IMG/VR virus record: IMGVR_UViG_3300045988_030968
Location: 1-44,150 of that record
Length of the DNA: 44,150 bases
Strand: one strand, 5' to 3'
From: a virus
Taxonomy: Duplodnaviria > Heunggongvirae > Uroviricota > Caudoviricetes
The notes under the pieces are model-generated. The model saw only the letters and a program-made list of their open reading frames with translations. It was not told where the DNA came from and did not search any database. A program made the translations under genes and the position numbers. Of this stretch, positions 2,442 through 44,150 are shown piece after piece. The first letter of the stretch is position 1, and every line of letters begins with the position of its first letter.

Positions 2442-3874
2442 TTCTTACCTCGTCTCTTCATGTAATTAAGCAACTCTTCCTGTACCGATTTCTTCTCGTC
2501 GGTACGCGCGGCAACAACCTCGTCCAGCGTGTCTTTAGCGACGATATGATAGAGGAACACCGGGCGCTCGTGGCCCGCCTGTTTCTGGCGAACCGGGCCA
2601 ATACGCTCGACAACCTGCAAATAGTGCTCAAGGTTCCAGCCTTGCGAAATAAACGCCAGATGATGCCCGCCATCCTGTAAATTCAAACCGTGGCCCGCTG
2701 ACGCAGGGTGTACGCATAAGATTTCTATTTCACCGCGGTTCCACGCTTCCATCTGCTTATTACCTTTAGCGCCTTTGGCGAACGCCTGTGCCTGCGGGAA
2801 TCGCTTAAGAATACGCTCCAGTTCATGCTTAAACTGATAGGCTACCAGTAACGGTGCACCCTGTAACTCCTCGACAATTGACTCAAGCGCGTCCAGTTTC
2901 GTGTCGTGTACTTTCTCCCAGTCTTTCGTTGCTTCTCCGTCTGGCCCTGATACGTATACGGCACCGGATGCAATCTGCAAGCACTTAGACGTCTTCGCCG
3001 CAGCGTTAGCCGCTTCAACCTCCCCGCTTTCCAGTTCCGCGAATAGCTTCTCCTCCATATCGATGTATGCCTGACGTGCTTTCTTCGGCAGGTCGATTTC
3101 GACCGGTACAATAATCGGCGCTTCGCAGCCGAACCACTCGGCGGCGTCAATCGTGAGACTAATGTCTTTCATCCTCTGATGAATCTCATTATCCGCGCCC
3201 GGGCGTACCCGATACCTTCGTGCCATCGCAGATTTGCCTTCCTGTACCGAGTTAAACCAGCGGTCAGTGAATGCTGTGTACGAGGAACCGAGGCGCTCTC
3301 CTGCGTCGATAAACCAGTTCTGACCCCACAAGTCTTTGAGGCCATTCGGCGACGGCGTACCTGTCAGGTTGATGAAACGCTTAACCTTTCCAAATGCCAC
3401 TTTACTAAGTGCCTTTGCTCGCTTGCTACCGCCTGAACGGCTGCGGAAGGATTTAAGCTTCGTGCTCTCGTCGGCAACGATAACAGTAAAAGGCCAGTCG
3501 TCTTTGCCGTAGTAGTCAATCAGCCATTCGATAACTTCATAGTTGGTGCATACCACGTTAGCGTCAGACTCCAGCGCCGCGATGCGGCGCTTCTCTGAGC
3601 CGGTTGCATCGACGACACGCAGACACGGGAAACCCCATTTCTCTTGTTCTGCGGGCCACGTACCAGACGCAACACGCAGTGGGGCGAGGATTAACACGCG
3701 GTCGTCATCATTAAGTTGACCGTTGCGGAACAGTCGGTTAAGCACCCACATTGTCGACGAGGTCTTGCCGCCGCCCATACCGCACCAGATATTGCAACGT
3801 GGGTGCTGTAGCATAAACGACGTCATTATTTTCTGGTATTCGCGCCTTTGAAACTTAGACATGATTGGCCTCAT
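2438..3874 (-). CDS. SNF2-family (SF2) DNA helicase
   Basis: 478 aa; Walker A GMGGGKT, DExx box VADEST, C-terminal helicase motif QVVERIGPVRQ. Confidence 0.85.
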   Translation of the reverse strand: MRPIMSKFQRREYQKIMTSFMLQHPRCNIWCGMGGGKTSSTMWVLNRLFRNGQLNDDDRVLILAPLRVASGTWPAEQEKWGFPCLRVVDATGSEKRRIAALESDANVVCTNYEVIEWLIDYYGKDDWPFTVIVADESTKLKSFRSRSGGSKRAKALSKVAFGKVKRFINLTGTPSPNGLKDLWGQNWFIDAGERLGSSYTAFTDRWFNSVQEGKSAMARRYRVRPGADNEIHQRMKDISLTIDAAEWFGCEAPIIVPVEIDLPKKARQAYIDMEEKLFAELESGEVEAANAAAKTSKCLQIASGAVYVSGPDGEATKDWEKVHDTKLDALESIVEELQGAPLLVAYQFKHELERILKRFPQAQAFAKGAKGNKQMEAWNRGEIEILCVHPASAGHGLNLQDGGHHLAFISQGWNLEHYLQVVERIGPVRQKQAGHERPVFLYHIVAKDTLDEVVAARTDEKKSVQEELLNYMKRRGKK

Positions 3875-8212: not shown

Positions 8213-8839
8213 TTAACGGCGACGACGTTCGCGGCGCGGTGCTTCATCTTCTTCGTCGTCTTCCAGGTCATCGACACTTGCGGCAACTTTAGAACCGCCG
8301 AACGCTTTACCCTCGCCAACGTATTTAATTGCCAACAGGTTAACGCCGAGGACTTTATATTTCTGGCTGAACCAGATTTCAACGCTTACGTTAGCGACGC
8401 ATCCGCTGTAAACCTGTTCACCTTCAATCTGTTCGCCGTCTACGTTGAAGTCCTGCTCTACCTGAGTCTCACCTTTTTTAGAGGTTACAATCAGCGGCTG
8501 TTTCTGTGCCTTCGCTTTGAAGTAGAAGCCTTCCGGGAAGTCTTCAAACGGATTGTCGCGCTCAGCAATGTCTTTAATAGCGCATTTATCCATATGCTTG
8601 CCTTCGCCGTAGTTTGACTTCATCCACTTCTCGGCAGCGGCTGCACCTAATGCTTCTTCAACTACCGCGTAAACAGTGTCGTAGAGTGCATCGATTTGAG
8701 CGTGGTCAGACGGCAGGATAATCGTTGCGCTGTACTGACCTTTAGTGATTGAGCCATCATCGTTTTCACGGTCTTTTTCGCGTTCAAATACGTTAACCCA
8801 TGCAGTGTTTACTTTACGCAGATTCAGTTTAATACCCAT
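8213..8839 (-). CDS. DUF2815-type single-stranded DNA-binding protein
   Basis: 208 aa; pattern NPFEDFPEGFYFKAKAQKQPLIV and YSGCVANVSVEIWFSQKY; acidic DDLEDDEEDE segment near C-terminus. Confidence 0.65.
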   Translation of the reverse strand: MGIKLNLRKVNTAWVNVFEREKDRENDDGSITKGQYSATIILPSDHAQIDALYDTVYAVVEEALGAAAAEKWMKSNYGEGKHMDKCAIKDIAERDNPFEDFPEGFYFKAKAQKQPLIVTSKKGETQVEQDFNVDGEQIEGEQVYSGCVANVSVEIWFSQKYKVLGVNLLAIKYVGEGKAFGGSKVAASVDDLEDDEEDEAPRRERRRR

Positions 8840-8892
8840 CGTGATTTCTCGCTTTTCAGTTTACTCCGGGAAGCTGCCCGGCCAGTGATTTA

Positions 8893-8922
8893 ACTATAAT
8901 AGTTTGCTATTCAGGATGTCAA
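8893..8922 (-). promoter_or_regulatory. Sigma70-type promoter with palindromic operator, upstream of SSB-like gene
   Basis: Minus strand TTGACA, 17-18 bp spacer, TATAGT; spacer contains TGAATAG-N4-CTATTA. Confidence 0.5.
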
Positions 8923-8926
8923 CACT

Positions 8927-10174
8927 TTATTCCAAATCTTCTTCACTAACCTGATTCCACTCAGGACGTTTGTCATCTGCTGTTGTTACGCATGGCGCGC
9001 CTGGCTTACGGGTAATGAAGTCTTTCAGTTCTTCTTCCGGCACAACTTTAACAGCTTCGGTCGGCGTCATGAGCACTTCTTTAGTCAGCTTGTCGCCGTA
9101 GAGTTCTGCTACTTTCTCCGCATCTTTCCACGCACGATTTCCAGGACGACCCTCAACCAGCTTGTACCCAGGAACTTTCTTACCGGAATGCAATGCGGTA
9201 GCCATCGCTTTCTCAACCTTATCGATGTGCTGGCGCAACAACGGCAACTTCTCATACTCGGCTACAAGTTGCTCTGGTGTCAGTTCCAGTGCAAAATCGT
9301 CCTCCAGTTCTTCCGCCAGTACCGCGTTAACGGTTTTTGTACGCGCGGCGCACTGTTCGGAGAACCGACACCACTGGCAACCATCTACTGACGGCTTGAA
9401 GTCCGACGCTTTCAGGTTCTTCTTGCCACGGAAATACGCATCAAGGGCCATCAGTGCCCGTTTCTGCGCGAACTTAGCGAACAGTTCCAGACCTTCAACC
9501 GAGATGTCCCACTCCGATGCACTGCCAGCGTACGGCTGGAAGATGACAAGACGCACAACTGTGATGTTATAGCGTCTCTTGAGTCGGCGATAAACACCAA
9601 GAGCGTAAAGCATAAGCTGCTTGTTTTCTTTCGCTTCGACACGATGTCGTCCTGTTTTCAGGTCGCCGATGATAAGCATCGCTGAGTTACTTTCGCCCGT
9701 AAAGCCTTCTATAACAGCCACTAAGTCGGCGGTTCCGAACGTCTCAACACCTTCATAGCCAGGATGCAATACCTCAGTAAGATTGACGCGCATTTCCAGC
9801 TTAGCGTAAGTCGCTACGTCGATAATCGCTTTGCAGTAGTCGGTATATTTGCGCACCTGTTCAATCATGTCCGCCGTAATCAGTACCGCACCTTTCATCG
9901 GGCTTATTAGCGCCTTAATCTGACCTTTACCCTCATCCAGAACATACGCACCTACTTCACGTTCTAACGGCAGCGCAGTGCCTTTGATGTACTGGTTAAG
10001 GTGCACCTCCGCTATGGTGTGCATAGCTGTACCCAATACGGCGGCTTTACCCGACGTATTAGGGATATCTTTTTCACAAGCCAGTGATGCCGCACAGCTT
10101 AGCCACTTTTTAGCGCCTGACGGCGACAGTAAGGCGTGCACATCGTTATTGCCACCGCGTTCCTTTAAAATCAT
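8927..10174 (-). CDS. DUF2800 / Cas4-like PD-(D/E)xK exonuclease
   Basis: Motifs IGDLKTGR and QLMLYA; C-terminal Cys cluster CQWCRFSEQC; start set at ATG 10174 (ATGA overlap). Confidence 0.7.
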   Translation of the reverse strand: MILKERGGNNDVHALLSPSGAKKWLSCAASLACEKDIPNTSGKAAVLGTAMHTIAEVHLNQYIKGTALPLEREVGAYVLDEGKGQIKALISPMKGAVLITADMIEQVRKYTDYCKAIIDVATYAKLEMRVNLTEVLHPGYEGVETFGTADLVAVIEGFTGESNSAMLIIGDLKTGRHRVEAKENKQLMLYALGVYRRLKRRYNITVVRLVIFQPYAGSASEWDISVEGLELFAKFAQKRALMALDAYFRGKKNLKASDFKPSVDGCQWCRFSEQCAARTKTVNAVLAEELEDDFALELTPEQLVAEYEKLPLLRQHIDKVEKAMATALHSGKKVPGYKLVEGRPGNRAWKDAEKVAELYGDKLTKEVLMTPTEAVKVVPEEELKDFITRKPGAPCVTTADDKRPEWNQVSEEDLE

Positions 10175-10443
10175 ACCCTGTTCTCCCACTGGTCAATTAA
10201 ATGTCGTGTCTGGTGATGGCAATGCATAGCCCACCCATACATCGACTCGAAGACATAAAAGTCGGGTTTGGCGAAAGTTGTGCGCTTAATATGCGACACG
10301 TGACGGCCTATATCTTTAGGCCGCGGTACTTTTCCTAAGTACGCCATCTCTTCCATCTGATGCGCACCGGACGGCGCACGTAACAGCCATAGCGCCTCTG
10401 TGTTATCTCGCCTGTCTACAGCGCGGTAGAGTTGGTAAATCAT
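10171..10443 (-). CDS. Hypothetical protein (90 aa)
   Basis: ATG 10443 overlaps upstream stop (ATGA); track ORF 10171..10560 trimmed. Confidence 0.45.
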   Translation of the reverse strand: MIYQLYRAVDRRDNTEALWLLRAPSGAHQMEEMAYLGKVPRPKDIGRHVSHIKRTTFAKPDFYVFESMYGWAMHCHHQTRHLIDQWENRV

Positions 10444-14889: not shown

Positions 14890-14918
14890 TTGACTTTTAC
14901 TAAGAAATATGGTAAGCT
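14890..14918 (+). promoter_or_regulatory. Conserved promoter core, copy 1 (TTGACT-17-TAAGCT with TGg extended -10)
   Basis: Near-identical to 27337-27365. Confidence 0.45.
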
Positions 14919-15140
14919 CAGCCTGAGCTTGTGAAGTATGAACGAGCGACCGCGGCGCGCGGCAGGCGAAACGAGCACGTGTAGCGTGTGGAGTGAGGCT
15001 CGCTAGCGCGTTTGGGAGGCCCAAAGTCTATTGTAATTCCCACCTAAATATCTAAGTTACTGATTCGCCGTAAGTTATATCCGCAAGCTCACTCACTCAC
15101 TCTTGGTGCCTTCGGCACCACGTTCGTTTCGTTTCGCTCG
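14919..15140 (+). ncRNA. Candidate conserved leader / structured non-coding element, copy 1
   Basis: ORF-free; first ~60 nt conserved with 27366-27425; inverted repeat AGCTCAG-C-CTGAGCT, (CTCA)3, hairpin GGTGCC-TTCG-GCACC at 15105-15119. Confidence 0.25.
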
Positions 15141-18996: not shown

Positions 18997-19480
18997 TGGG
19001 CTGCATTTCACCGCTGCGTTCGAGGGTTTCCGTGGAACTGCATACAAAGCAACAAAGAACGAAAAACACTGGACTATAGGCTGGGGCCATACCGGGCCTG
19101 ATGTGTACGAAGGGCAGAAGATTACCGAAGGTCAGGGGTTGCTGTTGCTGAACCGCGATATGCAGTGGGCTGTGAAAGCAGTCGATGAAGTCGCGCACCC
19201 ATCGCTGACACAGGCTCAGTTTGACGCCGTTGTTGACCTGGTGTTCAACGCAGGGACTGGCGTGATTGCGGCTACGACAGGGACGGGTAAGGCACTACGG
19301 CGGGGAGACATCCCTACATTACGGCACAAGATGAGTCAGTTCATCAACCAGCGCAACCCGAAAACCGGTAAACTTGAGCCTGTGCTCGGCCTTCGTCGCC
19401 GTACCGCCGGGCGTCTGGCACTGTTCGACGGCAAACCGTGGCGGGAGGCTGAGGCTATCGGGCGCGCGGTGAAAGGTTGA
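18974..19480 (+). CDS. Endolysin, GH24-type lysozyme (muramidase)
   Basis: GLHFTAAFEGFRGTAYKATKNEKHWTIGWGHT catalytic region; GTG 18974 preceded by GGAGGA; track ORF begins 18923. Confidence 0.75.
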   Translation: MSRNISDNGLHFTAAFEGFRGTAYKATKNEKHWTIGWGHTGPDVYEGQKITEGQGLLLLNRDMQWAVKAVDEVAHPSLTQAQFDAVVDLVFNAGTGVIAATTGTGKALRRGDIPTLRHKMSQFINQRNPKTGKLEPVLGLRRRTAGRLALFDGKPWREAEAIGRAVKG

Positions 19481-19545
19481 CACCTAAGACTAATCCGACG
19501 ATACTTAAATCACCTCCTGTTCCATCCCTATGCGCTCCAGTTTTA

Positions 19546-19579
19546 TCCCGGCCCTGACCCAGCCGGGATTTTTTTTTAT
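19546..19579 (+). terminator. Strong rho-independent terminator after lysis genes
   Basis: TCCCGGC-N9-GCCGGGA hairpin followed by a 9-T run. Confidence 0.7.
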
Positions 19580-19599: not shown

Positions 19600-19628
19600 T
19601 TGACTATTACTTACGACCCTACTATATT
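19600..19628 (+). promoter_or_regulatory. Sigma70-type promoter
   Basis: TTGACT, 17-bp spacer, TATATT; about 34 nt upstream of ATG 19662. Confidence 0.5.
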
Positions 19629-19661: not shown

Positions 19662-19895
19662 ATGGTTACAGATAAAAGCACCCTTAAACTAAAACTACGA
19701 GACGCGGTTAATTGCTCTTTGTATTCATGTACAGATGCCGAGCAGCGTGAACTTGTAAAACTAACTATAGTAGAGTTCTTCTCTGCAATAGGCATGGAGG
19801 ACAGCGATTACGTCGAAGTGCTTTCTAACTGTGGCGGATTAGATGCAGATACGGACGACGCGGTAGACGAGCTGATTAAGGAATTTGACCAATGA
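19662..19895 (+). CDS. Hypothetical small acidic protein
   Basis: 77 aa; first ORF after promoter 19600. Confidence 0.5.
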   Translation: MVTDKSTLKLKLRDAVNCSLYSCTDAEQRELVKLTIVEFFSAIGMEDSDYVEVLSNCGGLDADTDDAVDELIKEFDQ

Positions 19896-20041
19896 AAATC
19901 ACTGATATCGAAGCATTCAAAGACGCACAACTGATGGCACGCATCGCCGTTGGCAACCTGGGTGGAAGCATTCCTGCGGACTCGTTCTGGGCCGCCGCGA
20001 TGCAGGCACTGAAAGCAGCTTATGCAGGAGAGAAGAAATGA
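19892..20041 (+). CDS. Hypothetical micro-protein (49 aa)
   Basis: ATGA overlaps at both ends; ends ...AYAGEKK. Confidence 0.4.
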   Translation: MKITDIEAFKDAQLMARIAVGNLGGSIPADSFWAAAMQALKAAYAGEKK

Positions 20042-20232
20042 AAAATATAATCCCGGAAGTTGGTGAAGGTTGTTTCGTTGTTTCTTATTTAGACGGAGAT
20101 GAGTACGTTGATTGCGGCCAGTTTCAGCAATCTGAGGATGCAGGGGCTTACGCCGCGAAGCTAGTAGGTACTACGCCACTAGAAGATGTTCGTATCGTAT
20201 TCAATATAGAACTCGCAGGAGAGAAGAAATGA
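20038..20232 (+). CDS. Hypothetical small protein
   Basis: 64 aa; ends ...ELAGEKK using same 18-bp junction sequence as the preceding gene. Confidence 0.5.
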   Translation: MKNIIPEVGEGCFVVSYLDGDEYVDCGQFQQSEDAGAYAAKLVGTTPLEDVRIVFNIELAGEKK

Positions 20233-20387
20233 GCGAACAAGGTCCAGCAAACCAGCCATTACGAGTAGGCCGTAAAGTCAGTCACACCCCGTTCCCGACA
20301 CGCGAGGAACTGATGAAACGCAACAGTTTCCCGGGGCCGGACAAGAACAAGTATCTCAATCGCATGTGGGGAGAGCGTAAAGAATGA
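20229..20387 (+). CDS. Hypothetical micro-protein (52 aa)
   Basis: ATGA overlaps at both ends. Confidence 0.4.
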   Translation: MSEQGPANQPLRVGRKVSHTPFPTREELMKRNSFPGPDKNKYLNRMWGERKE

Positions 20388-20554
20388 AAAAGTTAATTGC
20401 AGATGTTGAGCTTGGTGATGTTATCCGTATTGATGACGCCTACGGCGGCTACGACGTAGTGGTGAAGTGCATCAAGTGGGATTCTATGCTGCCGTTAGTC
20501 ACGATTAACCGTGAAGTCATGTTCGCTAAAACTGATTGGGTAGAGGTTCGATAA
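20384..20554 (+). CDS. Hypothetical micro-protein (56 aa)
   Basis: ATGA overlap upstream; TAATG overlap downstream. Confidence 0.4.
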   Translation: MKKLIADVELGDVIRIDDAYGGYDVVVKCIKWDSMLPLVTINREVMFAKTDWVEVR

Positions 20555-21946: not shown

Positions 21947-22040
21947 GTACATCCCGCCCAATCCCCTTATATAATCCAATTAGACGCGTAGGGCGCGTCT
22001 GGTGCGCTCTGATGGTCAGACGCATATGCAAGGGGATTCT

Positions 22041-25327: not shown

Positions 25328-25363
25328 GTTCACATATAGCCCCGAAAGGGGCTTTCTTATAGT

Positions 25364-26440: not shown

Positions 26441-26901
26441 TGATGGGCTTTTTCAAAGTAACTGACGTACCGTCGCGTCGCGTAGTCCAGTACGCCCGCG
26501 TGTCTGGCTCTGGTGAGAATGTGGTGTTTATTGAAGATGAAAGTGTACTAGGTACACCGGTAGACGATATGCCGTTTGCGGATAAGACCGGTATTGCGCT
26601 ACCAGCGGCGGGCATGCTTTATGAGATTCCGTATCTGGCTGATGCTGGCGACGTGTATTTCTCTGAGCAACCGCAGGACACCGAACTGACAGACGGCAGT
26701 GCAACTCTCACTGTCGAAGTTAAAGCTGGTAAAGCACCATATGCGCTGACCTGGTACAAAGATGGTAAGGAAGTGGTCAACGCCCCAGAAGAGGCTTTGT
26801 CTCTGACGGTTAATGCGGTAGGGGAATACTTCGTTAAAGTTACCGATGCCGGTGGTGTGGAGGCTGTCAGCAAAGCGGCGAAGGTCACTAAGCCAGAATG
26901 A
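26440..26901 (+). CDS. Ig-like domain protein
   Basis: C-terminal TLTVEVKAGKAPYALTWYKDGKEV; paralogous motif in 29983..30324. Confidence 0.5.
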   Translation: MMGFFKVTDVPSRRVVQYARVSGSGENVVFIEDESVLGTPVDDMPFADKTGIALPAAGMLYEIPYLADAGDVYFSEQPQDTELTDGSATLTVEVKAGKAPYALTWYKDGKEVVNAPEEALSLTVNAVGEYFVKVTDAGGVEAVSKAAKVTKPE

Positions 26902-26904
26902 TAA

Positions 26905-26933
26905 AAGGCCCCTTCCGGGGCCTTAGTTTTATT
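26905..26933. terminator. Bidirectional terminator
   Basis: AAGGCCCC-TTCC-GGGGCCTT with T-runs on both strands; overlaps stop of minus-strand gene. Confidence 0.6.
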
Positions 26934-27213: not shown

Positions 27214-27237
27214 TTTTTCATCTCCTGTTCAAGTTAA

Positions 27238-27270
27238 CTGAATAGTACCCTATTATGTTGGGGTGTGCAA
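27238..27270 (-). promoter_or_regulatory. Conserved promoter, copy E (minus-strand TTGCAC-17-TACTAT)
   Basis: Reverse complement matches D1 at about 30 of 33 positions. Confidence 0.5.
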
Positions 27271-27336: not shown

Positions 27337-27365
27337 TTGACTTTTCACTGAAAATATGGTAAGCT
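27337..27365 (+). promoter_or_regulatory. Conserved promoter core, copy 2 (TTGACT-17-TAAGCT with TGg)
   Basis: Near-identical to 14890-14918. Confidence 0.45.
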
Positions 27366-27573
27366 CCACCTGAGCTTGTGAAGTATGAACAAGCGACCGC
27401 GGCGCGGGCAGGTAACGGAGCGGGACGTAAGTCCTGAGTGTAGTTACGCTGACGCGTTCGGAAGGGCCATAGGCTATTGCTTGTGTAAAAAGTAACTGGT
27501 TTACTGAGATTACGCCGTTTCTGTGTTTAAATGATAAGGACTAACGCCCCGCTTTATGGCGGGGCTTTACTTA
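27366..27573 (+). ncRNA. Candidate conserved leader, copy 2, ending in terminator-like hairpin
   Basis: ORF-free; 5' part conserved with copy 1; GCCCCGC-TTTATG-GCGGGGC plus TTTACTTAT at 27545-27573, just before the spanin RBS. Confidence 0.25.
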
Positions 27574-33327: not shown

Positions 33328-34496
33328 ATATGGCTACAACTCCTTTTAAGGGCGCGACTACCGCGCAATTCTATGTGGCGGAAGTCACCCCGGGCGTAAC
33401 ACCGGCTAACCCTGTCTGGTCGCCGTTGCGTAACACTGGCGGTGTTCCTGCTATCACCCGCGACACGCTGACCTCCAACGAACTGGACGGCAGCCGTGAA
33501 ACTACATCCATCCGCACCGGTAACAAACAGGTTAGCGGTGAATACGCGATCGAGCTTAGCTCGAAAAGCCAGGACGACTGGCTGGCGGGTGCTTTAGGCT
33601 CTACGTGGCAATCAGGTGTATCCTTGACTGACCTGTCAATTACCGTCGCACCGGCGGGCAAGACGTTCACCCGTGCTGATGGCAGCTTTATTTCTGATGG
33701 CGTTGAAGTAGGCGACCTGATCGCGTTCACCGACTTAACGGGCGACAACGCTAAACCGTTCATCGTAACCGAGGTAAGTGCGACTGTTGTCACAGGCGCC
33801 GGCATCCAACATACTCTGACCACTGAGACCGTAACAACCGACGCTAAAACCGGCGACAAACTGGAAACTGGTAACGCGTGTAAGACGTTCTCTATCCTCA
33901 CCTGGTACAAAGGCCAGTGCGGCGGGGCCGACGCGTACACGCTAACCAAAGGCGTGGAAGTTTCCGGTTTTACCGTGGAGCAGGCCGTTAACGCGATGGT
34001 AACGGGCAGCTTCCCGTTCATCGGGCGCAGCCAGGAGATTCTCGCGACGCCGCCGTCTGGTTCTGACTTCTCCTCTGTTACGTTTACTGATGAGCCGTTC
34101 TCCTCGGTCGACGTTTCTGTGTTCGACGGTTCTACGCCGTTGCGTTGCGATAGCCTGACCATCACCAACGACAACAGTGCATCCGCGCAGTTCGAACTTG
34201 GCAACACTAACGTGGCCTTTGTGGAACGTAGCCGCGCGGCTAACACCTTCTCCATCTCTGGTAAACTGTACGACATGGCGATGATTCAGAAGTTTATCAA
34301 CGAGCAGCAGGTAGAGATTAACTCTATTCTGGCTGGGGTAAACGGGGCTATGTCTTTCAGTTTGAAACGTGCAGAGCTTACGGCGGTTACACCTGAGATT
34401 GGCGGGCCTGAGTCAATCACTCAGAGCATAGAAGGACAGTCCACAGGCAATCAATATCAATCCTCTATCGTAATTCAGCGTATCACCTACGCATAA
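33324..34496 (+). CDS. Major tail protein
   Basis: 390 aa, Thr/Ser/Gly-rich; upstream of chaperone and tape measure genes. Confidence 0.6.
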   Translation: MNMATTPFKGATTAQFYVAEVTPGVTPANPVWSPLRNTGGVPAITRDTLTSNELDGSRETTSIRTGNKQVSGEYAIELSSKSQDDWLAGALGSTWQSGVSLTDLSITVAPAGKTFTRADGSFISDGVEVGDLIAFTDLTGDNAKPFIVTEVSATVVTGAGIQHTLTTETVTTDAKTGDKLETGNACKTFSILTWYKGQCGGADAYTLTKGVEVSGFTVEQAVNAMVTGSFPFIGRSQEILATPPSGSDFSSVTFTDEPFSSVDVSVFDGSTPLRCDSLTITNDNSASAQFELGNTNVAFVERSRAANTFSISGKLYDMAMIQKFINEQQVEINSILAGVNGAMSFSLKRAELTAVTPEIGGPESITQSIEGQSTGNQYQSSIVIQRITYA

Positions 34497-34500
34497 AACT

Positions 34501-34525
34501 AAGGCCCCGAAAGGGGCCTTTTCTT
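34501..34525. terminator. Bidirectional terminator
   Basis: AAGGCCCC-GAAA-GGGGCCTT with T-runs on both strands. Confidence 0.65.
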
Positions 34526-36111: not shown

Positions 36112-36137
36112 TTTAAACCCCTTCATTGTTGGTGTAA

Positions 36138-36170
36138 GTGAATAGTACCCTATTATATTGGGGTGTGCAA
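36138..36170 (-). promoter_or_regulatory. Conserved promoter, copy F (minus-strand TTGCAC-17-TACTAT)
   Basis: Differs from copy E at 2 of 33 positions. Confidence 0.5.
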
Positions 36171-41855: not shown

Positions 41856-44150
41856 ATGCCGATGGAGTTTGTCGTTAACCACATTCCCGACGGCGTACCT
41901 GTACGCGTCTACCTCGGCGAGATTGGCGATGATACTGATGTCACCGACGACTTCGACGCGCTTAAAGACGAAGACGCTGTGTACCACATTATTGAGGGTG
42001 CTGGTGGTGGCATCGGCGACGCTATCGGGAGTGTATTCAGTTTCATCCTTAAGCCAATTGCCAAGTTGTTCGGGCTTAACACCGCGGCTAACGCGAATTA
42101 TTCTGCTACCAACAACCAGGCTACGTCGCCTAACAACAGTCTCACCGACCGCTCAAACAAACCCCGTCCTTATGAGCGCTCCTATGATATATGCGGGACA
42201 GTGCAGACTATCCCCAATGACCTGATGCAGACGTATAAGGTGTTTAATGCCGCAGGGGCGCTTATTGAATACGCATACTATGACGCCGGTCGAGGGTATC
42301 TGCATATTGAGGAAGACGGTGTAACCGAGGCAGATACCAGAATCAGCGAGATAACTGGCTCGTCGGTGACGGTATATTCTCCTTACACTTCGCCGAATAA
42401 TACCAGCGCCCCACAATTGCATATCGGCGACCCGATAGACCAGAAGTTGTACATTACATTTAAAAATGCCGATGTCGATGGCGCTGTTCTTCCTGCGCCT
42501 AATGACATCGCGATAGACGTCGCTCTGTATACTGTACAACGGCAGGGCCCAACAGGCATTGTCGTTGGTAGTGATGCCGGTTTTGACGAAATAATTTCAG
42601 TAGGTGACTTGGTCTATTTTGACAACGTCTACGCAGATACGACTCCAACCTATCAAGGCGATGAAGTTAACCTGGATGGTCGCTATACGGTACTTTCAGT
42701 GAGCGAGACCACACTTATCGTTGATATAAGCCCAAATCAATCGGTATGGAACCAAATAGGAACCGCCCAATGGGAAATAGACGCCAACGTAGGTAATCAT
42801 CTTATCGGCCCGGCGGACACTTACGCGGCTTCTCTCTCTGAATGGGCGTACATCACCCGCGGTACTGTCGACCGTGTTGTAGCCAATGTCGCCGCCAGCA
42901 ACGGCATGTATAAATACAACGGCGATTATAATCGTGCCTCCGTAACGGTGGAACTGCAATACCAGATGGTGGACGAATTGAAACAGCCCGTTGGCGATAT
43001 ATTCACCGTGCAAGGCACTGTTACAGGGAGAAACACTGATTACACTGGTATCACCTTATATGGTAGTTTGCCTACTGCTTCCCGATTCCGCGCCCGTATG
43101 CGTCGTGTTTCTGACACCGATAAAGATTTTGAGGGTACTGTTAGTGACGAGGTTACTTTCACTAATCTGTACGGGCAGTCACTGGATACAACCCCGCACT
43201 ACGGCAACCGCACTACCGTACACTGCGCTCGTAAACAAACGCCACGTGCCGCGGAGGTGTCCGAACCGGAACTACGCATGATTGCTACCGAGATGTGCTA
43301 CAAATACCTCGGAAATGGCGTATTCGATACGGCAATGACACCGAACACTCAGGCCGTGCAGTCACTAATCCGCTTGGCTCGCGACCCCGCGGTGGGTAAT
43401 CTGGAACTGACAACGGCAAACATGGACAAGTTACTCGCCGTTCAGGAAGAAATTGAGTCTTATTTTGGTAGTAAATTAGCTGGACAATTCTGCTACACGT
43501 TCGACGATTACGACACAACTATGCAGGACATTGTTCAGACCATAGCGGAAGCCGTGTTCTGTACAGCGTACCGTAAAGGTGCAGATATTATGCTGCGATT
43601 CGACCGTCCGGTCGCGGGGCCGGAGATGGTGTTCACTCACCGCAGCAAAACGACCGGTACAGAGAAATGGACGCGCACGTTCAACGATTCGACAACCTAC
43701 GATAGCCTGTCGTTCTCGTACATCGACCCGGATACGAACGTACAGGAGACAATTTATATCCCGGAAGAACTCGGTGCAAATACCGAGGAGTACGAATCGA
43801 AGGGCGTGCGCAATTATCAGCAGGCTTACTGGCAGGCGTGGCGTCGATATCAGCGCAACACGTTAAGTAAAGTTGTCGTAGAGTTCGAAGCTACTGAAGA
43901 AGGGGCGCTCGCTACACCCGGCGGCGTAATCAGCGTGGTTAAAGGTTCACGTATTGCTCCGCAGGATGGTTATGTTGTTGCCGTTAATGGGCTTACGCTG
44001 ACGCTGTCGCAGCCGGTTATGTTCACCCCCGGCGACGACCACTCCATCATCCTCAAGAAGCGCGATGGCTCGGTGCAGAGTATCTCCGTTATCAAAGGAA
44101 GCCACGACCGCGAAGTGATTATGCTCTCTGCACCGGAGGAGGCAATCTAC
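41856..44150 (+). CDS. J-like central tail fibre / tail tip protein, 5' part (continues into 1..265)
   Basis: Frame open from ATG 41856 to window end and in phase with ORF 20..265; Gly-rich hydrophobic N-terminal segment; no stop in window so absent from ORF track. Confidence 0.6.
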   Translation, partial: MPMEFVVNHIPDGVPVRVYLGEIGDDTDVTDDFDALKDEDAVYHIIEGAGGGIGDAIGSVFSFILKPIAKLFGLNTAANANYSATNNQATSPNNSLTDRSNKPRPYERSYDICGTVQTIPNDLMQTYKVFNAAGALIEYAYYDAGRGYLHIEEDGVTEADTRISEITGSSVTVYSPYTSPNNTSAPQLHIGDPIDQKLYITFKNADVDGAVLPAPNDIAIDVALYTVQRQGPTGIVVGSDAGFDEIISVGDLVYFDNVYADTTPTYQGDEVNLDGRYTVLSVSETTLIVDISPNQSVWNQIGTAQWEIDANVGNHLIGPADTYAASLSEWAYITRGTVDRVVANVAASNGMYKYNGDYNRASVTVELQYQMVDELKQPVGDIFTVQGTVTGRNTDYTGITLYGSLPTASRFRARMRRVSDTDKDFEGTVSDEVTFTNLYGQSLDTTPHYGNRTTVHCARKQTPRAAEVSEPELRMIATEMCYKYLGNGVFDTAMTPNTQAVQSLIRLARDPAVGNLELTTANMDKLLAVQEEIESYFGSKLAGQFCYTFDDYDTTMQDIVQTIAEAVFCTAYRKGADIMLRFDRPVAGPEMVFTHRSKTTGTEKWTRTFNDSTTYDSLSFSYIDPDTNVQETIYIPEELGANTEEYESKGVRNYQQAYWQAWRRYQRNTLSKVVVEFEATEEGALATPGGVISVVKGSRIAPQDGYVVAVNGLTLTLSQPVMFTPGDDHSIILKKRDGSVQSISVIKGSHDREVIMLSAPEEAIY
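44096..44150. repeat. 55-bp direct repeat identical to 1-55
   Basis: Exact identity. Confidence 0.9.

Follow-up and report, generated by a model that had tools for sequence, protein, structure and literature searches.

An 18-bp stop/start junction repeated around a small ORFan gene probably marks a point of cassette gain and loss in Kagunavirus-like phages

Results

Organisation of the genome and of the small-gene array

The window, that is, the whole 44,150-nucleotide stretch of DNA analysed here, was placed by megablast as a complete Kagunavirus-like genome (Guernseyvirinae; K1G-like coliphages). Its nucleotides 1-55 are identical to nucleotides 44096-44150, and because of these identical ends the sequence can be taken as a circularly assembled genome of about 44.1 kb. 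The 55-nt identity represents the overlap of a circular assembly, so that the real genome measures about 44,095 bp and is contained whole in the window. In a search with a 23.6-kb query, the best genome-wide matches covered about 80% of it at about 90% identity, and since the nearest sequenced genomes are that distant, a recent gain or loss event cannot be reconstructed from them.

The locus of interest is found directly past the lysis cassette, whose endolysin ORF ends at 19480 (Table 1). The intrinsic terminator of that cassette has a loop longer than 8 nt and was for this reason missed by the automated terminator scan; a terminator is annotated at the homologous position in phage Schulenburg. 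About 12 tiny genes on the same strand then follow, up to the small terminase gene at 22002, and the layout of this array is identical in Schulenburg, a well-annotated relative. The initial annotation called these small genes early, which is plausible given the candidate sigma-70-like promoter that precedes them. The first gene of the array sits in a variable slot between the leader and the 49-aa gene, and the gene was otherwise found among the sampled loci in L041 only (L numbers designate loci and f numbers families of slot genes).

Table 1. Positions of the genes and sequence elements considered in this study
Feature	Position	Strand	Remarks
gp2.5-like ssDNA-binding/annealing protein	8213..8839	-	PHROG 112; candidate annealase, putative role at the junction
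Exonuclease	8927..10189	-	PHROG 69; candidate recombination machinery, putative role at the junction
Intrinsic terminator, end of lysis cassette	19545..19578	+	stem ATCCCGGC/GCCGGGAT, 9-nt loop, T-run; read by eye
Candidate sigma-70-like promoter, head of small-gene array	19600..19628	+	TTGACT-17-TATATT; 10/12 consensus matches, called by consensus alone
77-aa first gene of the array, variable slot 1	19662..19895	+	match to PHROG 14587, annotated 'anti-restriction protein'
49-aa conserved gene	19892..20041	+	PHROG 2180; last 5 codons and stop form junction copy 1
Junction copy 1, GCAGGAGAGAAGAAATGA	20024..20041	+	codons A-G-E-K-K-stop, SD GGAG, ATGA overlap with next start
64-aa ORFan accessory gene (cassette)	20038..20232	+	ends in ELAGEKK-stop
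Junction copy 2, identical 18-mer	20215..20232	+	source of SD and ATG for the DUF2737 gene
52-aa DUF2737 gene	20229..20387	+	PF10930, 39 bits against a cut-off of 25; PHROG 4684, E = 3.8e-32
Degenerate junction relative at 3' end of DUF2737 gene	20370..20387	+	GGAGAGCGTAAAGAATGA, WGERKE-stop
56-aa accessory gene, slot 3, family f26	20384..20554	+	52% identity to slot-2 homologue of other phages

Other elements of the genome deserve mention in their own right. The genes of the exonuclease and of the gp2.5-like annealing SSB adjoin on the minus strand (8213-10189), so that this siphophage has a recombination pair in the style of T7. Two plus-strand copies of a direct repeat of 70 nt, 87% identical, occur at 14890-14959 and 27337-27406 and start with TTGACTTTT; the repeat looks like a duplicated promoter with a conserved leader placed before two different gene blocks. 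A further direct repeat of 36 nt, 94% identical, is present at 27235-27270 and 36135-36170. GGCCCC-loop-GGGGCC hairpins followed by T-runs recur at 2272-2303, 26897-26928 and 34493-34524, as well as at 25339-25355, and look like a family of near-identical terminators.

Anatomy of the repeated junction

The 18-bp sequence GCAGGAGAGAAGAAATGA is present on the plus strand in two exact copies, at 20024-20041 and 20215-20232. The distance of 194 bp first reported for them needs correction, as their starts are 191 bp apart and 173 bp separate the two copies. The ORFs confirm the rest of the initial description: each copy encodes AGEKK and the stop codon of one gene, and then provides the ribosome-binding site and the ATG of the next. 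The 49-aa protein ends in AYAGEKK and the 64-aa protein in ELAGEKK, the stop and start codons overlap as ATGA at 20038-20041 and 20229-20232, and GGAG is found 7 nt 5' of each ATG. The 191-bp unit corresponds to one gene, that of the 64-aa ORFan, together with one copy of the junction.

Both copies have the features of a stop/start overlap junction, namely consecutive ORFs on the same strand, a 4-nt ATGA overlap and a Shine-Dalgarno sequence (SD) within 5-9 nt of the ATG. As judged from its sequence, the junction is first of all a putative translational-coupling element, composed of GGAG, a 7-nt A-rich spacer and the ATGA overlap. Neither copy folds into an RNA structure (z = +0.71 and +0.35), in line with what an open ribosome site should look like. 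A promoter scan found no promoter-like site overlapping either copy, and a search for inverted repeats around the cassette gave nothing meaningful, terminal inverted repeats being absent.

The duplication of the 18-mer is far beyond chance. No further site was found in the window with up to 3 mismatches allowed, 0.03 matches are expected in shuffled sequence, and none of 100 shuffles contained two or more matches. The same 18-mer was recovered as family D4/D6 in a repeat search. As a stricter null, we considered all 17 ATGA stop/start junctions of the window (136 pairs) and compared the 14 nt located 5' of ATGA. The pair under study is identical at 14 of 14 positions, and every other ATGA pair at no more than 9 of 14; the identity of the repeat is therefore not due to a generic likeness between ribosome sites, and it stands out also against the other ATGA junctions of the window.

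The proteins on either side of the junctions appear unrelated. BLASTP gave zero alignments between the 49-aa and 64-aa proteins and between the 64-aa and 52-aa proteins, all three form separate families in an all-against-all clustering, and nucleotide identity breaks off sharply at each edge of the 18-mer.

Conservation of the junction and occupancy of the slot among relatives

Allowing at most one mismatch, the 15-nt core of the junction is present on the plus strand in 78 of 90 loci, and on the minus strand in none of the 90. Nearly all Kagunavirus loci have it where the 49-aa gene ends. The 18-mer has a mean column conservation of 0.955, slightly above the 0.91 of the rest of that gene's 3' end. 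A scan of IMG/VR for the exact 18-mer largely recovered the same Guernseyvirinae contigs, with little that was new. Literature searches, which were limited and in one case poorly targeted, found no Guernseyvirinae-specific description of this junction. The initial annotation had named two observations that would speak against its proposal: the lack of similarity between the flanking proteins beyond the junction, which is indeed what we found, and a lack of conservation of the repeat in relatives, which is not the case.

A query of 311 nt that takes in both copies had matches in 443 phage records. Among the matches listed, only four records cover it fully, MirsaeidiM_Esher4, LF7074P1 (two records) and LF7074P3, and most of the 60 listed records have both flanks within a 120-nt span, which corresponds to 311 minus 191. 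A tblastn search with the 64-aa protein returned the same four records and no others. In the sequences of K1G and Schulenburg, which we read directly, the 49-aa gene adjoins the DUF2737 gene via a single copy of the 18-mer.

The collection of loci harbouring both flanking genes comprises 60 members, drawn from IMG/VR contigs, fetched reference-phage loci and the window itself. The slot between the two genes is empty in 25 of them, and the remainder contain representatives of about ten unrelated small-gene families, with one gene per occupied slot except in phage ST20, where there are two. For the family of the window's cassette (f29) as well as for f22, f51 and f66, the right boundary of the slot gene is the junction core GGAGAGAAGAAATGA, and for f43 it is the same core with two mismatches. 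The length in common with the left copy ranges between 15 and 19 nt. In L008, the right copy is located past the stop codon of the cassette gene and is hence untranslated. Families f20, f24, f26 and f85 have their own, different SD-ATGA junctions at their right ends; with about half of the slot families ending differently in this manner, the 18-mer is not needed for insertion.

Reuse of the junction extends beyond this slot. ST20 has four copies in series, between the 49-aa, 69-aa, 94-aa, DUF2737 and 79-aa genes. The DUF2737 gene itself is bracketed by the junction in L005, L040, L044 and L046, and some relatives have the exact junction GGAGAGAAGAAATGA, encoding WGEKK and a stop codon, at the 3' end of that gene. 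The junction is thus a sequence conserved at the same boundary that flanks non-homologous modules, and the breakpoints of homology coincide with it. As for the genes that it flanks, they are ORFans that differ between close relatives and are found, between repeats, in a plastic region. Recombination, which the initial annotation had proposed between small early genes, is supported at the junction by the precise presence or absence of 191 bp and by the occurrence of the same junction around other, unrelated slot genes.

More distant DUF2737 genes, with 45-74% protein identity, were observed in phage and prophage contigs (L060-L089, around 3088-3160). They end in W(L/F)GAKK and a stop codon via GGAGCGAAGAAATGA, which is one mismatch away from the Kagunavirus junction core, and variable genes are located downstream. 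Because these distant genes natively end in GGAGCGAAGAAATGA, the sequences suggest that the junction motif is old in this gene neighbourhood.

Cassettes found in different slots and genomes

Two families of slot genes occupy different positions in different phages. Members of f26 lie between the 49-aa and DUF2737 genes in L025, L026 and L042, and after the DUF2737 gene in the window (Table 1) and in L033; the two versions are 52% identical (E = 3e-18). Similarly, f22 is usually found in the slot between the 49-aa and DUF2737 genes, where its product has the tail FKFAGEKK. L045 has it after a DUF2737 gene ending with the junction, and its tail there is not GEKK but FTFVGGVESD. In the Jerseyvirus locus L050, f22 is placed between two copies of the local Jerseyvirus variant of the junction, GCAGGAGAACAAAAATGA and GCAAGAGAACAAAAATGA, so that both copies co-vary within a genome. 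Just downstream of f22 in the same locus (2960-3003), f24, a 52-aa gene, survives as a remnant of 38 nt, the remainder having been lost by deletion between two 7-bp CGGATGG repeats. In L051, the sister of L050 (2845-3003), f24 is intact and f22 is absent. Taken together, the sequences are best read as indicating that the junction belongs to the locus and not to the protein.

The window's cassette is 95.9% identical to that of L002, and its 49-aa gene is 85.6% identical to that of L002 and 92.4% identical to that of L012, in which the slot is empty. The identities of cassette and 49-aa gene do not agree, and the histories on the two sides of the junction are therefore discordant.

Two of the loci compared contain premature stop codons. 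TAA is found at codon 3 of the DUF2737 gene in L033 (3001-3010), and in L045 (2978-2990) a TAG interrupts the 49-aa gene three codons before it normally ends. Each may reflect pseudogenisation or a sequencing error.

The cassette protein and its occurrence outside Kagunavirus

Pfam and PHROG searches matched the 64-aa protein to no family. Homologues are rare: 5.8 billion proteins yielded just 17 clusters, all at least 80% identical. The C-terminal tail is GEKK in 15 of these clusters, AGNNHV in one and SLHPGGL in another. An AlphaFold model of moderate confidence (pLDDT 70, pTM 0.51) predicts a beta-beta-alpha-beta fold that would end at residue 59, with its last strand at residues 51-59 and residues 62-64 disordered. 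Foldseek found no match at E <= 0.001 in viral and PDB libraries. Phage Dmd and p56, its weak top matches, were unusable as structural relatives, and we claim no function for the cassette.

The AGNNHV form is present in divergent Guernseyvirinae-like contigs (L147/L148), with a gene of the 49-aa type on one side and a DUF2737 gene on the other; the junctions around the cassette are different there and are not repeated. The SLHPGGL form comes from L149, a 994-bp contig whose flanks match the podophages P64441 and PAS7 (Slopekvirinae, Autographivirales). The 64-aa gene occupies positions 100-294 of that contig, and the match to Kagunavirus, at 80% nucleotide identity, is confined to positions 99-269, which run from the ATG to about codon 57. 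Podophage relatives (L150, L151; P64441, PAS7) have an empty site that reads ATCTAATGAACTTCG. In L149, the gene has been inserted precisely at the TAATGA overlap; compared with the empty relatives it is flanked by a 7-bp duplication, TAATGAA, and the insert brings its own GGAGG 5' of the downstream start.

The transferable unit is thus the core of the ORF, with the last 5-7 codons coming from, or being adapted to, each site. The position of the junction-encoded tail outside the predicted fold is consistent with this proposal. The matching sequences also indicate that the 64-aa ORFan has passed between siphophage and podophage lineages, that is, across families.

Discussion

Our comparison of genomes establishes the anatomy of the junction and a precise presence/absence polymorphism of the cassette; it also shows that the slot has many alternative occupants, that the junction is reused and that the cassette is found in other contexts. 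We consider it likely that the 18-mer is the junction module of an array of translationally coupled tiny genes, and that its two copies delimit a unit, the 191-bp gene cassette. The repeat probably also marks the crossover point of cassette gain or loss, and can probably serve as such. Cassettes would then enter, leave or change slots by recombination at or beside the junctions. The 15-19 nt common to several boundaries, together with the many phages that co-circulate, would offer microhomology from which viable, coupled products can arise. In co-infecting phages, an exchange at a common junction would insert a cassette or swap it for another. Within a single genome, annealing or replication slippage between the direct copies would delete 191 bp and leave one junction, the product being the empty state seen in most of the listed relatives. 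The downstream gene would keep a functional ribosome site in every product, which is why recombinants would survive selection.

As for the machinery, short-homology annealing could be performed by the exonuclease and the gp2.5-like annealase, or the copies could simply slip during replication. The junction may itself have been the substrate of the crossover, and the cassette may have been gained in this genome or lost in its relatives, since the sequences are compatible with either direction. Some observations weigh against too strict a model. In L147/L148, the cassette lies between the same neighbours without a repeated junction, and the podophage insertion displays a duplication of 7 bp only. 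It is possible that copy 2 persists simply as the native ribosome site of the DUF2737 gene, and 18 bases are short for efficient homologous recombination.

How else might the two copies have arisen? The initial annotation suggested, as one of two possibilities, a tandem duplication of small genes, which would make the 64-aa protein a paralogue, since diverged, of either the 49-aa or the 52-aa protein. Apart from the AGEKK tail and the identical 18 nt that they have in common, there is no detectable likeness between them; their separate clustering, the abrupt ends of nucleotide identity and the finding of the 64-aa gene elsewhere with other tails and other neighbours make this proposal extremely improbable, and we reject it as far as sequence can tell. 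It is also very unlikely that selection produced the same optimal combination of Shine-Dalgarno sequence, spacer and ATGA independently twice. The junction does look like a good ribosome site, with its GGAG, 7-nt A-rich spacer, ATGA and absence of structure, but the other 15 ATGA junctions resemble one another or the 18-mer at 9 of 14 bases at most, quite different junction sequences are found in the same operon, and the identity covers synonymous positions as well as the GCA codon 5' of the SD. A direct repeat around a segment that is missing in relatives could suggest the target-site duplication of a mobile element, be it a transposon, a homing endonuclease cassette or an integron-type insertion. 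However, the 173 bp between the copies are taken up by one 64-aa ORF without a transposase or endonuclease match, no terminal inverted repeats were found, and the length in common is not fixed but amounts to 0, 7 or 15-19 nt. Neither does the site fold into a hairpin or attC-like structure, nor is an integrase annotated in Schulenburg, a relative of the phage studied here. A mobile element is very improbable; transposon-type duplication, integron-like insertion, convergence and chance are each unlikely.

The main rival is of a different nature. The cassette might have entered near the boundary by illegitimate, homology-independent recombination, with the right copy being the ribosome site of DUF2737 kept by selection and the repeat not serving as a substrate at all. 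We regard this as doubtful, yet it has several facts on its side. Many cassettes of the slot lack the junction on their right side, the Slopekvirinae insertion duplicates just 7 bp and that of L147/L148 nothing, and the right copy of L008 is non-coding, as if it were part of the DUF2737 leader. Furthermore, illegitimate recombination followed by selection is the prevailing general model (PMC3029335). What it leaves unexplained are the in-frame GEKK codons at the ends of unrelated proteins, the junction at the 3' end of DUF2737 ahead of further variable genes, the four copies of ST20 and the local variant found on both sides in Jerseyvirus. Nor would an insertion placed precisely at ATGA be enough to duplicate the 15-19 nt located 5' of it.

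Recombination at a shared junction, the explanation that we favour, has precedents. The present case is phage mosaicism of the 'short conserved boundary sequence' type, to which belong the modular theory of Susskind and Botstein and the boundary ('linker') sequences at the module junctions of lambdoid phages, as recounted in PMC3029335. A near-exact precedent is gene 68 of mycobacteriophage Island3, an 85-residue ORFan absent from Brujita, in which the last 18 residues (about 50 bp) are a copy of the C-terminal end of the gene upstream; its authors proposed recombination between the repeats in either direction, by intramolecular deletion or by intermolecular insertion through general recombination (PMC3029335). 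In both cases a short boundary sequence is held in common, one phage has an extra ORFan, and C-terminal codons repeat those of the upstream gene. However, our repeat measures 18 bp instead of about 50, coincides with an SD/ATGA translational-coupling junction, and is reused by several unrelated cassettes in several slots and in dozens of genomes, whereas that of Island3 is known from one pair.

In the hyperplastic regions of T4-type phages, recombination between near copies of PeSL cassettes shuffles ORFans (PMC2839356, PMC4122927) and could release an ORFan for transfer (PMC2839356). There as here, repeated short motifs flank non-essential ORFans in a plastic region, with insertions, deletions and replacements between relatives. 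Nevertheless, PeSLs are intergenic and consist of a promoter and a stem-loop terminator; our repeated unit has neither, is itself part of the coding sequence and works through translation, and we do not count it among them. Deletions between short direct repeats are on record for T7, lambda and Sf6, as cited in PMC5630979. Short direct repeats likewise flank losable segments in our loci, including the 7-bp case beside the cassette of L050. Those deletions represent laboratory loss of dispensable DNA, whereas here the repeat is a ribosome site, the polymorphism is that of natural isolates, and there are alternative occupants.

The resemblance to integrons is no closer than an analogy. Integrons are promoter-proximal arrays of small, promoterless, exchangeable genes with a recurring short sequence between them, and the phage array could be described in much the same terms. 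Unlike in integrons, there is no attC-like folded site, the repeats are translated, no site-specific mechanism is indicated, and the annotation of the relative contains no integrase.

It is tempting to go further and to imagine the SD/ATGA junction as a dedicated, recombinase-independent 'docking site' for tiny host-takeover ORFans that travel as junction-bounded mini-cassettes, although we think this improbable. In the same, similarly tentative picture, such cassettes would circulate from slot to slot within a genome and between coliphage families that are not related (Kagunavirus, Jerseyvirus, Slopekvirinae). They might move as excised units of about 190 bp or through annealase-driven template switching. 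Such a docking site would be the translational counterpart of PeSL mini-circles or of integron cassettes.

The principle that short boundary sequences accompany phage mosaicism is already established, and the conceptual gain of our observations is small. Particular to this case is a translated SD/ATGA junction that adds a GEKK tail to unrelated proteins. For annotation, this means that the GEKK tails common to such proteins are junction artefacts and not a motif. The region is a hot spot in which three or more slots vary, and it could be mined for host-takeover or anti-defence candidates, the first gene of the array matching an 'anti-restriction' PHROG. One 64-aa ORFan is documented in both siphophage and podophage lineages. 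Compared across genomes, the locus illustrates cleanly how tiny accessory genes are gained, lost and reshuffled in virulent phages with operon expression left intact, the joints falling on stop/start ribosome-site junctions and a single junction sequence being reused many times.
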